Source: a virus
Strand: one strand, 5' to 3'
IMG/VR virus record: IMGVR_UViG_3300047510_002187
Location: 31,073 to 95,072 of that record
DNA: 64,000 bases
A model generated the notes under the pieces. The model did no database searches. It saw only the letters and a program-made list of their open reading frames with translations, and had not been told where the DNA came from. Shown here in pieces: positions 27,196-30,944 of the stretch; the stretch's first letter is position 1; each line of letters begins with the position of its first letter. The translations under genes were made by a program, and so were the position numbers.

Positions 27196-27238
27196 ACTGG
27201 CACACTCCACGACATCCCAGCGGATTCCGTGGTATTCT
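27196..27238 (+). promoter_or_regulatory. promoter cassette (aCTGGCACA, hairpin ccacg/cgtgg, TATTCT)
   Basis: Upstream of the Ubl gene. Confidence 0.4.
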
Positions 27239-27307
27239 TAAGGGGTCGGTGAGGGAAACACCAAACCGACAAACACCTGTCCTTTACATTTCATTTCCTT
27301 TTTTATT

Positions 27308-27574
27308 ATGCAATTCCTCAACAACGTTCGTACCCAAGACGCTTCCGCTCCTGTTACCCTGGTGGTCAACGAGGAAACCTACAGCGTGTCTCCCGACAAC
27401 TACCGTGGCAAGACCGTTGCTCAACTGTTCTCCCAGTACGGTGAGAACCTTGGCGTGGATCCTGCTCGCATCAACCGCTATGTGATCAACAACGAGATCG
27501 TTCCTGGCGAAACCACCGTGCGTCCTGGCGAAACTGTTCGTGGTGCTGTGACTTCCGAAAACAAGGGTTTCTGA
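27308..27574 (+). CDS. ThiS/MoaD-like ubiquitin-like beta-grasp protein (non-canonical C-terminus ..ENKGF)
   Basis: 88 aa; TLVVNEETYSV...TVAQLF...INNEIVPGETTVRPGETVRGAV pattern resembles sulfur-carrier/Ubl proteins; located directly upstream of the JAB and E1 genes. Confidence 0.45.
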   Translation: MQFLNNVRTQDASAPVTLVVNEETYSVSPDNYRGKTVAQLFSQYGENLGVDPARINRYVINNEIVPGETTVRPGETVRGAVTSENKGF

Positions 27575-27582
27575 TCCCTATT

Positions 27583-27606
27583 TTCCCAACCTCCCTTTCG
27601 GGGGAG
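27583..27606 (+). promoter_or_regulatory. perfect 8-bp GC hairpin between Ubl and JAB (attenuator or processing site)
   Basis: aacctccc-tttcg-ggggaggtt followed only by a short T-run. Confidence 0.35.
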
Positions 27607-27637
27607 GTTTACTCCACTACTTGACCTTTACAATATC

Positions 27638-28675
27638 ATGACGACCGAAATCCAAGAGCAACCGACTATTCTTCGTACCCCTCGGGACGGATGTTTTGAA
27701 TACTACACTGGTGGTTGGGGCAAATACCTTCGCCCTATTGATGATCCTGAAGCAAATGTGATCATCAATAATGATGATCTCAAAACTTTTGAACTGAAAG
27801 AAAACATTCATAGGATTCCTGCGGATCTTTGGCAGCGATGGGTTCAACTTTGCTTCTACTATGTGGACAAGGTTGCCGCTTCTCTTGAGGTTTCGGTTCG
27901 TATTCTTCGCAATGAAGAAGATCCTTCCAAATATCGTATTCTGGTTCCTCGTCAAGAAGTCAGTGGTGCTTCTGTCCGTGTAGATAGTTTTGATGAAGCA
28001 ATTGATATTGAAACGGGTGAACCTATTACTCAATATCCTCCTGTAGGTTGGATTCCTGTTGGTTCTTCTCATAGTCATAACACTATGGGAGCATTCTTCT
28101 CAGGAACAGATGACAAGTACGAACTTGGCGATCCAGGCATTCACCTTGTTGTTGGTTCTATCAACATTTCCAAACGGTCTTATGCCATTGCTTCGTCTGT
28201 TGTTGCTGGTGGTCGTCGGTTCAAAGTTAATTACAACCATCTGATTGACGCTACTCCTGTTGATGATGTTTCGTATCATGAAGATGTTCTGAGTTACGTT
28301 ACTGTTGAGAAACCCAAGATTACTACAATTATCAACACCTGGCAGGGTCAAAAACAGCGCACCAACAATTTCCTGGCGCCCAGTCGTTTTAATCCTCCCA
28401 CTTCCAGGAACACTCAAAGTAACTACAAGGATCCTTTCCATTATCAGGATTCTGTTGATTGGACTGAGTTTGAATCAATTGATGATTACTGGAACGCTGT
28501 TGAATCTGCCCAGAAAAAAACAGTCAAACTCTGGAACATTGAAGATTCTATCACTGATTTCCTGAAGCAAAATCGTGGCGACATTGAAGAGAAATCTAAT
28601 CTGATGACTCTTCTGACCCAAATTTGTTCCGACATTGAAGCGGAACTTGAACTTGATCTCATGGAGGTGAACTGA
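27638..28675 (+). CDS. JAB/JAMM (MPN+) metallopeptidase-domain protein
   Basis: HSHNTMGAFFSGTDD matches HxHx7Sx2D; upstream E residue present. Confidence 0.7.
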   Translation: MTTEIQEQPTILRTPRDGCFEYYTGGWGKYLRPIDDPEANVIINNDDLKTFELKENIHRIPADLWQRWVQLCFYYVDKVAASLEVSVRILRNEEDPSKYRILVPRQEVSGASVRVDSFDEAIDIETGEPITQYPPVGWIPVGSSHSHNTMGAFFSGTDDKYELGDPGIHLVVGSINISKRSYAIASSVVAGGRRFKVNYNHLIDATPVDDVSYHEDVLSYVTVEKPKITTIINTWQGQKQRTNNFLAPSRFNPPTSRNTQSNYKDPFHYQDSVDWTEFESIDDYWNAVESAQKKTVKLWNIEDSITDFLKQNRGDIEEKSNLMTLLTQICSDIEAELELDLMEVN

Positions 28676-29763
28676 TGTCTGCTATTTTTCCTACCGAACC
28701 CGCCAAAGTTCATATTCACTCTCTGCCTACTCAGTCTGAGTTTATTAGTTATCAGGTTCAACCTGATATGATTCGCCTGAAAGCATGGATGCCTAATGGT
28801 TTTGCTAGGTTCAAAGTTGCCAATAGTGAGACTCAGCGAATCAATTGTTTCTATGAATCCAATTGTATCGGGTGTCGTAGAAATAGTCGTCAATATATTA
28901 TGGATACTTATCCAGATATTGTAGAAGACGGTCCTTACGGCATTGATATTAACTGGAATGCCTATGAAAAAATCGCCAGGGATCCAAACATCAATGAATG
29001 TAGCGTTTTTTATGCTGGTTGGCAGCGGCCCTTTCGTCACTGGGTTGGTACTTGTCCAGAGGGCAATGTATATGATGAAAGTGATAATGATGCCGATTAT
29101 GTGAGCGTCTCCAATATGGTTTTTGAATGTCATATTTCTCATAATAATAAAGATCTTCTCTTTGAGAAAATTAACGACACAGCATATCTTTGTGCCGGTA
29201 AAGTTGACGACAACAATCAAGTAGTTGCAACTAAAAAACTTTCGGTTTCTAATGTCTACGGTGGTGAATGGGGAAGTTATCTTGGTGGTCCTATTTGTTG
29301 GGGAAGCGTAACCACCAGCGATAATCAGTATGATTATACGCGACCAAGGAATCTTCGTGAGATCTCAACTTCTTATTTTTCTTCCCAAACAAATAACGAT
29401 CTTCTCAATCTGCAATCTTTTGCAAGCAATTGTGAAGATATGCGTAAACACAGTTCTAGGAAAACATCGTTTAAAAAACTGGAGAATGACACCTTTCTTT
29501 GCGCCGGTTATGATACTCTAATCATGATCTCCGCAGATACGGATGTTCAGGCATTCTTCACCATGCTTATGGCAGGATTTAAACCTCTCCCCCAACTTCC
29601 GCACGTTATGATCGTCCCTGCCCGCACTTCCAGCATTCAACGAGGTGATGATCTTTATCTTGGTTTCGTGACCATGGAAGATTCTGTCGGTCGTCAGTGG
29701 TATGTTTCTACAGAAGGGTATCTGATTGGTCAACTCGACGAGTCCTTCGTGTGTGCCAGTTGA
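28675..29763 (+). CDS. Cys-rich protein of unknown function with an internal NDT.YLCAG repeat (candidate E2-like or adaptor)
   Basis: EKINDTAYLCAGKVDD and KKLENDTFLCAGYDTL repeats; GGPICWGSV faintly resembles the E2 G.IC motif; ATGA-coupled to the JAB gene. Confidence 0.4.
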   Translation: MSAIFPTEPAKVHIHSLPTQSEFISYQVQPDMIRLKAWMPNGFARFKVANSETQRINCFYESNCIGCRRNSRQYIMDTYPDIVEDGPYGIDINWNAYEKIARDPNINECSVFYAGWQRPFRHWVGTCPEGNVYDESDNDADYVSVSNMVFECHISHNNKDLLFEKINDTAYLCAGKVDDNNQVVATKKLSVSNVYGGEWGSYLGGPICWGSVTTSDNQYDYTRPRNLREISTSYFSSQTNNDLLNLQSFASNCEDMRKHSSRKTSFKKLENDTFLCAGYDTLIMISADTDVQAFFTMLMAGFKPLPQLPHVMIVPARTSSIQRGDDLYLGFVTMEDSVGRQWYVSTEGYLIGQLDESFVCAS

Positions 29764-29832
29764 GATACTGACACACATCCTTTCCAAACCACCCTCTCAT
29801 CCCTTATTATTGATCTGTAGTCAATTCCACCT

Positions 29833-30546
29833 ATGACCTTTTCTCCTGATTATGTTTTCGTGATTGGTGTTGGAGGTACTGGAGGTTACATTTCCTCCCC
29901 TCTCGCCCGTCTTGTTGCCTATCATCCTTCCACCAAGGACGCCAAAGTTGTGTTCATTGATGGTGATGAGTTTGAGGAAAGCAACATGACTCGCCAGATC
30001 GTTGGCGAAGCGCAACTTGGACTCAACAAAGCGCGAGCAATGATGGACTTCTGTAGTTACCAGGGTCTGTCTAACGTTGATTACAAGGATGATTATATTT
30101 CTATGACATCCTTCATTCCTCTTCTGCGTAGGTCCAATTGCCCTATGATTGTGTGTTCCGTTGACAATGACGCGACTCGCAAGGACATTATCGCTGCTAT
30201 TTCTTCTGCTTGTGAAGATAAAGACTTCTTCTTCATCACTCCAGGCAATTCCGATGGTACTGAAACTGTCAAGGGTCAAACTCTTTGGTTCGGACGTGTC
30301 GGTGGTCAAAGCATCGGTCTGAATCCTTCTCTGGTGTATCCCAACATTGAGAACCCAGAAGATTCGGTCCCTCACAAGGGGTCATGCGCCACTCAGGCGC
30401 CCTCCCGCCCTCAACTGATCTCTGCCAACTTCATGGCGGCAGCAATCACTCTGTCGGTCATCCAGAACGTCCTGGATGAAATGATCAATCCGCAGCAAAG
30501 CGGCATGTTCTTCAACCTTCGTACTCTTACCACCTCCGTTTCCTGA
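29833..30546 (+). CDS. E1-like ThiF/MoeB/HesA-family adenylyltransferase (minimal, 237 aa)
   Basis: VFVIGVGGTGGYI Rossmann GxGxxG plus FIDGDEFEESNMTRQ (D.D..E.SNLNRQ motif). Confidence 0.7.
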   Translation: MTFSPDYVFVIGVGGTGGYISSPLARLVAYHPSTKDAKVVFIDGDEFEESNMTRQIVGEAQLGLNKARAMMDFCSYQGLSNVDYKDDYISMTSFIPLLRRSNCPMIVCSVDNDATRKDIIAAISSACEDKDFFFITPGNSDGTETVKGQTLWFGRVGGQSIGLNPSLVYPNIENPEDSVPHKGSCATQAPSRPQLISANFMAAAITLSVIQNVLDEMINPQQSGMFFNLRTLTTSVS

Positions 30547-30548
30547 TC

Positions 30549-30944
30549 ATGAGCACTGTTACTTCCACCATCAAAGAAACCACCCAAATGACCGCTACTG
30601 AGACTCCTGTTGCTAACGAAGTTGCCCAAGTGAACGTCAATGAGCAACTGGTTCAACTTGACAATCTTCTCACTGCAATCAGTTATCTGCATGAAGAAGT
30701 TCGTTCGCGTCAAATTGAAATGCTTGGCGCATCTGAAGTTGAGCGCATGGTAAAAGAATTTCTTTCCGATCGTGGTTTTTACACACGCATCCTGAATTAT
30801 CACAAGCGTTACCAAATTCCTACCATCAAGCGTGAAGTCATGGACGAGATCAAGAACGATATTGACAGTCATCTTGAGAACTACATCCTCTCCAAGATTG
30901 ACGAGCGTGTTGAACTTGCCCTGAGCAACCGCGCCAGTAACTGA
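30549..30944 (+). CDS. hypothetical protein (131 aa)
   Basis: ORF track; coupled to the E1 gene. Confidence 0.4.
   Translation: MSTVTSTIKETTQMTATETPVANEVAQVNVNEQLVQLDNLLTAISYLHEEVRSRQIEMLGASEVERMVKEFLSDRGFYTRILNYHKRYQIPTIKREVMDEIKNDIDSHLENYILSKIDERVELALSNRASN

Follow-up and report, generated by a model that had tools for sequence, protein, structure and literature searches.

A predicted ubiquitin-like conjugation module in a relative of the T4-like cyanophages

In the literature covered here, prokaryotic conjugation of ubiquitin-like proteins (Ubls) has been shown experimentally only in bacterial systems, namely type II CBASS (anti-phage signalling systems based on cyclic oligonucleotides), Bil and Bub, which are anti-phage or have been proposed to be so, and the bacterial Ubl families have been summarised in PMC11601603 and PMC11601596. 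For Bil, PMC10557695 reports experiments in which the JAB peptidase BilC pre-processes the Ubl BilA to expose a Gly and in which conjugation depends on an activating enzyme (E1) and a conjugating enzyme (E2), the E1 having a mobile CYS domain. Bub systems (types I and II) have a DUF6527 serine protease together with E1 and E2 proteins that are devoid of a catalytic Cys and employ oxyester chemistry (PMC11601596, PMC11601603). In Asgard viruses, E1-like genes have been described alone (10.1101/2021.07.29.454249). We found no account of a phage operon combining Ubl, JAB, E2 and E1, which, our coverage of the literature being incomplete, is absence of evidence only. Here we analyse such a gene set in a 64,000-nucleotide stretch of viral DNA (hereafter the window; positions 31,073 to 95,072 of IMG/VR record IMGVR_UViG_3300047510_002187), where five consecutive genes encode a Ubl, a JAB metallopeptidase, protein X (a predicted E2 with extra domains), a minimal E1 and protein Y. 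We consider it reasonably probable that this module is a self-contained Ubl conjugation cascade of a virulent T4-like cyanophage.

An earlier note, made from the letters of this DNA and its open reading frames (ORFs), had described a module of four genes. All four ORFs are present on the plus strand where it had placed them and contain the motifs it quoted, whereas a fifth conserved gene, Y, lies in the same interval and had been overlooked. Three findings named beforehand as contrary to the proposal, a non-beta-grasp Ubl, a dehydrogenase-type E1 and incomplete JAMM ligands, were looked for and not encountered.

Components of the predicted cascade

The first gene (27308-27574) encodes an 88-aa protein ending in ..SENKGF, which sequence matches and a structural model identify as a predicted beta-grasp modifier precursor, in keeping with the fold that had been proposed for it. 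The window protein itself matches Pfam ThiS weakly (E=0.006), and ThiS is the sole recurrent Pfam family among 19 Ubl homologues (9 of the 19, best E=4e-4; Ub-Mut7C was matched by two). The AlphaFold2 (AF2) model, built from a shallow alignment of nine sequences, has a confidence score (pLDDT) of 80, with 82-90 in the core, and displays the beta-grasp order of elements followed by a disordered C-terminal tail. E84, K86 and G87 are invariant in the family, whose members all close with SE[SNQ]KG and 0-2 further, variable residues: roughly half of the sequences stop at G87, the others continue with F, S, C, SF, SY, VY, LG or LL, and the window Ubl has the single residue F88 beyond it. The variable tail is seen across more than 20 Ubl sequences, one from a distant system (L017) included. 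Because the Gly is conserved while the short tail is unconserved and dispensable, the comparison strongly supports G87 (codon 27566-27568) as the predicted reactive C-terminal Gly, the tail being removed by trimming; the C-terminal processing that the earlier note had suspected is thus suggested locus by locus. The protein ends in K-G, without the Gly-Gly of ThiS/MoaD. Since the K86-G87 end is invariant, trypsin would be expected to leave a single-Gly remnant on modified lysines, giving a direct proteomic handle on the targets.

A GC-rich 9-bp hairpin directly 3′ of the Ubl gene (27588-27609, plus strand), recognised from folds and locus comparison, is likely an attenuator or partial terminator. 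Of 11 loci inspected, 10 have a hairpin at this position, L013 being the locus where it was not seen; the hairpin sequences are unrelated between loci and a strong T-run is usual. The Ubl gene has a GC content of 0.539, is rich in GC at third codon positions (GC3) and, in each locus, has a higher GC content than any other part of the module. Both this pattern and the hairpin would fit with the tag being expressed above the level of the enzymes.

The second gene (27638-28675; 345 aa) carries HSHNTMGAFFSGTDD and matches Pfam Prok-JAB at 24.2 bits, just below the cut-off of 25. Residues E84, H145, S146, H147, S155, D158 and E162 are invariant when 14 homologues are aligned, which come from T4-like phages, a Bacillus jumbo phage, bacterial metagenome-assembled genomes (MAGs) and an archaeal MAG. 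The protein carries, as judged from this alignment, the full predicted JAMM catalytic set E..HxH x7 S xx D, so that the site which the earlier note had called perfect is indeed complete, including the upstream Glu (E84) and all the metal ligands for which a check had been proposed. The C-terminal ~150 aa extend beyond the catalytic set and have no assigned role. In two related loci, L007 (5152-5392) and L008 (5157-5397), a group I intron lies inside the JAB gene, exactly between the codons for HSH and NTM; it matches Rfam RF00028 at 63 and 59 bits (cut-off 50), and its removal leaves in-frame exons.

Protein X (28675-29763; 362 aa) has itself no direct match in Pfam, PHROGs or PADLOC, and each of the 63 clusters of its family is labelled 'hypothetical'. 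A profile search through 1.84 billion representative proteins brought up 170 relatives. In a comparison of 113 distant ones, N193 does not vary, C208-W209-G210, N240, D242 and L243 are kept in 90% or more, and 19 of these 113 match Prok-E2_D (PF14460; best E=3.5e-9), to which 6 of 51 close homologues are matched weakly. Over the very stretch that the X profile matches, three relatives exceed the Prok-E2_D cut-off of 25 bits (P0194 with 37, P0183 with 27.9 and P0195 with 28.2 bits), the E2 of a Kaiserbacteria locus (L023) scores 34.4 bits, and the X profile reaches proteins passing this cut-off at E values of 1e-5 to 1e-6 among 1.8 billion sequences. The AF2 model of X shows a beta-meander at residues 141-185, a loop holding N193 and C208, and then two helices, which is the order of elements in the ubiquitin-conjugating (UBC) fold. 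Since relatives found with the X profile pass the Prok-E2_D cut-off over the same region, N193 and C208 included, we conclude by transitive homology, and not by a direct match, that X is a predicted diverged E2 of the Prok-E2_D type, with its core at about aa 140-262 (29092-29460, plus strand) and C208 (codon 29296-29298) as candidate catalytic Cys. If X is an E2, the cascade would be complete.

X is larger than its core. Invariant in the close family are C64, C67, C109, C127, N193 and C208, of which the first four probably form a Cys4 metal (Zn) site in an N-terminal domain; the C-terminal domain is beta-rich. The protein had been described as a Cys-rich unknown; its 11 Cys do make up 3.0% of the residues, and five do not vary in the close family, whereas C208 alone is near-invariant in the 113 distant relatives, and the identity now proposed is that of an E2. 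The internal repeat that had been pointed out is also there (NDT..LCAG at 167-175 and 271-278), with a weak local similarity in a comparison of X with itself (133-175 against 234-278, 24% identity, 25.8 bits). A duplication of a domain is nevertheless not established, because the secondary-structure contexts of the two copies differ in the AF2 model.

The fourth gene (29833-30546; 237 aa), carrying GVGGTGG and IDGDEFEESNMTRQ, scores 33.3 bits against Pfam ThiF (cut-off 28.1). Its best PADLOC match is to the E1 part of the CBASS E1-E2 (Cap2) models (E=9.8e-10), that to BilD being weaker (E=9e-4), and the family profile retrieves from the Protein Data Bank (PDB) MccB (5e-8), UBA5 (3e-6), UBA3, SAE2 and TcdA. 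These are adenylating enzymes of the E1 superfamily with no dehydrogenase among them, and the minimal E1 of the earlier note thereby holds. Invariant are GxGGxG (12-17; G12/G14/G15/G17), D43/D45, N51, R54-Q55, K66, D111-N112, R116 and C185. The last of these (codon 30385-30387) sits in the crossover loop and aligns with the Cys in 'EGVCAASLPT' of UBA5, which we take to be the catalytic Cys250 of that enzyme, and is the candidate thioester Cys. As 237 aa leave no room for a separate CYS domain, the protein would be a minimal, UBA5-like E1; CxxC zinc motifs are absent from its sequence.

Gene Y (30549-30944; 131 aa) follows E1 in each T4-like locus whose sequence reaches beyond that gene. Its product is predicted to be helical, contains the motif VNDxLVxxDNLxxAxxYLxEE and has no match in Pfam, PHROGs or PADLOC; it is putatively an accessory protein acting as adaptor, regulator or substrate. 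The genes are tightly spaced, the JAB stop and X start codons overlapping (ATGA) and 2 nt separating the E1 stop from the Y start, and the module ends with a terminator-like 10-bp hairpin (30953-30977, plus strand; -19.3 kcal/mol, z = -3.15). The starts of Ubl, JAB and E1 have no Shine-Dalgarno-like sequence in front of them (27290-27310, 27620-27640, 29815-29835).

Conservation and comparison with described systems

The order Ubl-JAB-X-E1-Y recurs in every related locus that is long enough, on about 16 distinct phage-like contigs of up to 284 kb drawn from NCBI, JGI, IMG/VR, Logan and ENA, so that the search for the same gene order in other viral contigs, which had been recommended, gave a clear answer. 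Identity to the window proteins is 48-70% for the Ubl, 49-68% for JAB, 34-45% for X, 66-75% for E1 and 30-47% for Y, and the recurrence of gene set and order is far beyond chance. The order even survives the intron in L007 and L008 and the insertion of GIY-YIG-like homing endonuclease genes (phrog_314), the latter located between Ubl and JAB in L005 (4415-4849), L006 (3656-4462) and L010 (3889-4752) and between E1 and Y in L010 (7877-8842) and L011 (7879-8670). In L011, a second copy of the final 31 E1 codons follows the insert (8804-8896), as is typical of a homing footprint.

The carrier had been called a T4-like virus, and two window proteins support this: a gp6-type baseplate wedge protein (54655-56577; phrog_219, E=3e-195) with 55-59% identity to its counterparts in Synechococcus and Prochlorococcus myoviruses, and a protein of the Kyanoviridae Gp96 family (Kyano_Gp96; 47178-47498). 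Judged from these genes, the window comes from a Kyanoviridae-like relative of the T4-like cyanophages. The source contig measures 258 kb; when the module and its flank were compared by megablast with 50,697 GenBank phage records, no near-identical DNA turned up, and there is no close isolate.

Outside this lineage the module has distant relatives only. The system in L017 keeps the order Ubl(..GEKKGC)-JAB-Prok-E2_D-ThiF. A scan of cellular genomes, one per species, gave E1 proteins of 26-32% identity, all in MAGs (Verrucomicrobiales, Pirellulaceae, Planctomycetia, Kaiserbacteria, Parcubacteria, Binatia and Thermoplasmatales) and all with a JAB gene directly 5′ of E1. In L022 (Verrucomicrobiales), L026 (Pirellulaceae) and L023 (Kaiserbacteria), a Ubl-like protein ending in ..GEKG plus a tail is encoded upstream and an E2-like protein is also present. 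The Ubl, E2 and JAB proteins of these cellular relatives match neither the Bil nor the Cap3 models of PADLOC. Directly after the E1 of the Ubl-E2-JAB-E1 operon in L026 lies a gene (6829-7938) for a fusion of HTH_3 (helix-turn-helix, HTH) and Peptidase_M78 (IrrE/ImmA), presumably of the CapH/CapP-type regulator architecture. Regulators of that type are described beside CBASS in 10.1101/2022.04.27.489752.

Among GenBank phages, related E1 genes occur only in three Bacillus jumbo phages, vB_BceM_WH1, Edson and KLEB27-3 (25-29% identity), and a tblastn search with X, made against GenBank phages as a whole, gave no match. In vB_BceM_WH1 (L032, LC597490.1, 181723-184817), three adjacent genes encode an E2-like protein (gp214), a JAB protein (gp215) and a ThiF protein (gp216), labelled in GenBank as 'hypothetical protein' (gp214, gp215) and 'ThiF family adenylyltransferase' (gp216); gp214 matches the hidden Markov model of the X family at E=1.6e-11. 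The JAB protein has HSHNTMGAFWSGTDD, and, as in the window, genes for an SPFH protein and small membrane proteins are nearby: just 3′ of the trio are gp219, SPFH-like as judged from reading its sequence, and two small membrane proteins. The trio differs from the module in its order, E2-JAB-E1, and in that no Ubl gene was recognised near it.

PADLOC gives no Bil match for the Ubl, JAB or X, and the match of E1 to BilD, lower than those to CBASS E1-E2, covers positions 206-317 only of the 453-position model, with no room in the 237-aa protein for a CYS domain. Bil operons have the gene order Ubl-E2-JAB-E1, and in this they differ from the Ubl-JAB-E2-E1 of the module, which is also set apart by an E2 of the Prok-E2_D type with Cys4 and C-terminal domains, by the extra gene Y and by a virulent phage as carrier. 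Type II CBASS is similar in that the E1 domain is nearest to Cap2 and is partnered by a JAB protein. However, E2 and E1 are separate genes in the module, unlike the E2-E1 fusion of Cap2, and a free Ubl takes the place of the CD-NTase C-terminus; tests of the module and its neighbouring genes against CD-NTase and effector families gave no match, nor does the JAB match Cap3. In contrast to Bub, the module has no DUF6527 match, and a Cys is invariant in its E1 and near-invariant in its E2.

Uncharacterised Prok-E2_D operons of uncultured bacteria and archaea (for example L017, L022, L023 and L026) share the same four parts and a Ubl ending in ..[GS][EK]KG with or without a tail, but their E1 proteins are only 26-39% identical, E2 precedes JAB in the MAG loci, Y is missing and most of their E2s are short, without Cys4 and C-terminal domains. 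UBA5 resembles the phage E1 in having a single adenylation domain and a Cys in the crossover loop with which C185 aligns; the match is nonetheless distant (E=3e-6), and the module has no partners of the UFM1 type. TAPI and TAPK of phages lambda and T1 likewise comprise a phage Ubl with a conserved C-terminal Gly adjoining JAB (PMC1779556), but are encoded in a tail cluster without E1 and E2, and their Ubl is fused to a C-terminal domain and their JAB to NlpC/P60, whereas the module has no NlpC/P60 match. The earlier note had likened the gene set to bacterial Ubl conjugation systems: as a kind of machinery it is like them, with E1 nearest to Cap2, yet the comparison places it outside Bil, type II CBASS and ThiS/MoaD. 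The module works, as predicted from its parts, like Bil, and belongs to none of Bil, type II CBASS, Bub, ThiS/MoaD and TAPI/TAPK. We regard it as a distinct Ubl conjugation family, borne by virulent phages and distinguished by an E2 of unusual multidomain build and by the conserved fifth gene.

Proposed mechanism, role and alternatives

The strict conservation of the E1 and E2 catalytic residues and of the Ubl Gly argues for a working cascade, and the steps could be as follows. As the Ubl gene has a hairpin of its own behind it, the Ubl would probably be made in larger amounts than the enzymes, and JAB would cut off the tail where there is one (F88 here), baring G87. The minimal E1 would then adenylate the G87 carboxylate with ATP and take up the Ubl as a thioester on C185, from which it would be handed to C208 in the E2 core of X. 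X would attach it to lysines of its targets, and the Cys4 N-terminal domain and C-terminal beta domain would be likely to select the substrates, making X an E2/E3 hybrid. JAB may also reverse the modification, and Y might be an accessory adaptor or regulator. Thioester chemistry, direction of transfer, stoichiometry and targets are in this scheme inferred.

As for what the cascade would be for, it is a tentative though quite possible proposal that virulent T4-like cyanophages, and Bacillus jumbo phages with a reduced set, use a complete Ubl conjugation system of their own during infection and tag with it host proteins, such as immune or regulatory factors, or proteins of rival phages. If true, this would be a viral counterpart of Bil and type II CBASS, with a UBA5-like E1 and an E2 in fusion with substrate-recognition domains, and Ubl conjugation would be a weapon for both sides of the phage-bacterium conflict. 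A conserved operon of Ubl, deubiquitinase, E2 and E1 in lytic phages would show that bacterial viruses use the same chemistry, the question then being that of the phage targets, and so compact a set (an 88-aa tag, a 237-aa E1) may serve as a minimal E1-E2 model or as a tool for protein ligation. With more reserve, we suggest that its role lies in early or middle host take-over or in counter-defence by modifying host proteins, because a late promoter is missing and the neighbours are of counter-defence type. The T4 late TATAAATA is not found upstream of the module and has only three copies in the window, two of which (32418-32425, 32497-32504) precede a homing endonuclease gene at 32533; its absence is weak evidence of early or middle expression. 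The neighbours, which in several loci appear from their sequences to be of the counter-defence or RNA-repair type, include ArdA in L003, Rnl1 with a kinase in L005 and, in the window, a tRNA nucleotidyltransferase. Several points weigh against this picture: the Pfam matches of the Ubl go to ThiS, a sulfur carrier; E1 has no separate CYS domain, and its top PDB match, MccB, is a non-conjugating adenylating enzyme; the expression class is read solely from missing motifs; and the case for counter-defence is circumstantial.

The cascade could also serve phage exclusion or defence, tagging structural proteins of rival phages or marking the infected cell in a Bil-like manner, whereby the resident would win a co-infection. 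The distant cousins in bacterial and archaeal MAGs, one with an HTH+IrrE/ImmA regulator, and the position of the module in an accessory region that varies and has many homing endonucleases might be taken to point that way. We find it unlikely, however: the Ubl, E2 and JAB of the module and of its cousins have no PADLOC match to Bil or Cap3, virulent T4-like carriers would leave little time for slow exclusion by conjugation, and strict conservation in the whole lineage contrasts with the patchiness of defence cargo. More clearly improbable is a sulfur carrier like ThiS, MoaD, CysO or QbsE, in which E1 would adenylate the Ubl to make a thiocarboxylate that gives sulfur to a cofactor, thionucleoside or small molecule, and JAB would only mature the carrier. 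The trimming of such carriers by JAB proteins is established for CysO/Mec+ and QbsE/QbsD, ThiS is the one Pfam family that recurs among the Ubls, and E1 is minimal, ThiF-like and nearest to MccB in the PDB; but an E2 with an invariant Asn and a near-invariant Cys in every locus would be left unexplained, the five module proteins have no rhodanese, cysteine desulfurase or synthase match, and the Ubl ends in KG instead of GG and is accompanied by an E1 without CxxC zinc motifs.

More improbable still is a device for virion assembly, in which Ubl and JAB would help as chaperone and protease to build the tail or head of the phage that encodes them, after the fashion of TAPI/TAPK, and any conjugation would be to structural proteins of that phage. 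Such pairs do occur in lambdoid and T1-like tail clusters (PMC1779556), and the Ubl gene, GC3-rich and with its own hairpin, looks highly expressed. Against this, the module lies among accessory genes outside the structural cluster, the baseplate gene being 24 kb away; TATAAATA, present elsewhere in the window, is absent before it; and it contains no TAPK-type NlpC/P60, while its E1 and E2 have no lambda counterpart. Least probable of all, it seems to us, is that Ubl, E1 and E2 act as decoys competing with a host conjugation system of the Cap2 or Bil type, or that JAB reverses such conjugation, blunting immunity. JAB enzymes reverse Cap2 and Bil conjugates in bacteria, according to PMC10557695, the phage E1 has its nearest match in the E1 part of Cap2 and there are counter-defence-like genes nearby. 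Yet a lone JAB would suffice for reversal, and the strictly conserved Ubl Gly and active-site residues of both E1 and E2 speak for a working cascade of the phage's own.

Leader, base composition and neighbouring genes

Transcription of the preceding unit appears to end at a terminator-like hairpin (27119-27136, plus strand; consensus terminator scan and fold) after a 70-aa gene (26881-27093). It is followed by a conserved non-coding leader or promoter region (27182-27286, plus strand), and alignment of 11 distinct T4-like loci revealed the same element in all of them: box A, TAtAnT, an invariant GTCGGTGAG and TGTC(C/G)TTTA. In the window, a degenerate box A lies at about 27182-27209, TATTCT at 27233-27238, GTCGGTGAG at 27245-27253 and TGTCCTTTA at 27278-27286. 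GTCGGTGAG is found 54-63 nt before the Ubl ATG and is unique in the window. The leader element holds the same position in L001-L015; L011 and L012 have two copies in tandem. There is no enrichment of sigma-70 sites and none is well placed, and the leader does not fit sigma-70 spacing. These results do not confirm the single cassette promoter from which the earlier note had the genes read. A structured RNA leader is not supported, because RNAalifold on the conserved leader gave -1 kcal/mol with no compensatory pairs and Rfam found nothing relevant over 26000-32000. TG(T/A)CCTTTA is seen 7-22 nt 5′ of the Ubl, JAB and SPFH starts; as a general signal, TGTCCTTTA was rejected, since its 24 matches in the window compare with 23 expected.

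The GC content of the module had been taken as a sign of horizontal acquisition. The block is indeed elevated, at 0.444 against 0.367 for the window, but this amounts to about one standard deviation for windows of that size, and a stronger island exists at 45000-51500 (0.46-0.65), whose ORFs have no Pfam match save DUF6011 (50535-51356) and the Kyano_Gp96 protein. The contrast looks sharp because the adjoining upstream gene, a 651-aa ORF, has a GC content of only 0.274. In relatives, the module exceeds its flanks by 0.01-0.05; because this excess is small and it is chiefly the Ubl gene that is GC-rich, recent acquisition is not shown, and GC was discarded as an indicator of it. The GC pattern of the Ubl gene fits selection on expression or codons as well as it does transfer. 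The module has long been part of its phage lineage, in which it is maintained vertically.

The 651-aa ORF just upstream of the module region (24900-26855; GC3 0.17) has no match in Pfam or PHROGs. Directly on the 3′ side (31015-32413) there are genes for a 66-aa membrane protein, for a 64-aa protein (31212-31406) that has the N-terminal methylation motif of type IV pilins (N_methyl, 33 bits), for a membrane protein of 56 aa and, at 31601-32413, for an SPFH/Band 7 protein. L008, L013 and L034-L036 likewise have an SPFH gene, not more than about 3.5 kb away from the module. The window carries three GIY-YIG-like homing endonuclease genes of its own (phrog_314), at 32533-33198, 39388-40014 and, on the minus strand, 40008-40841.

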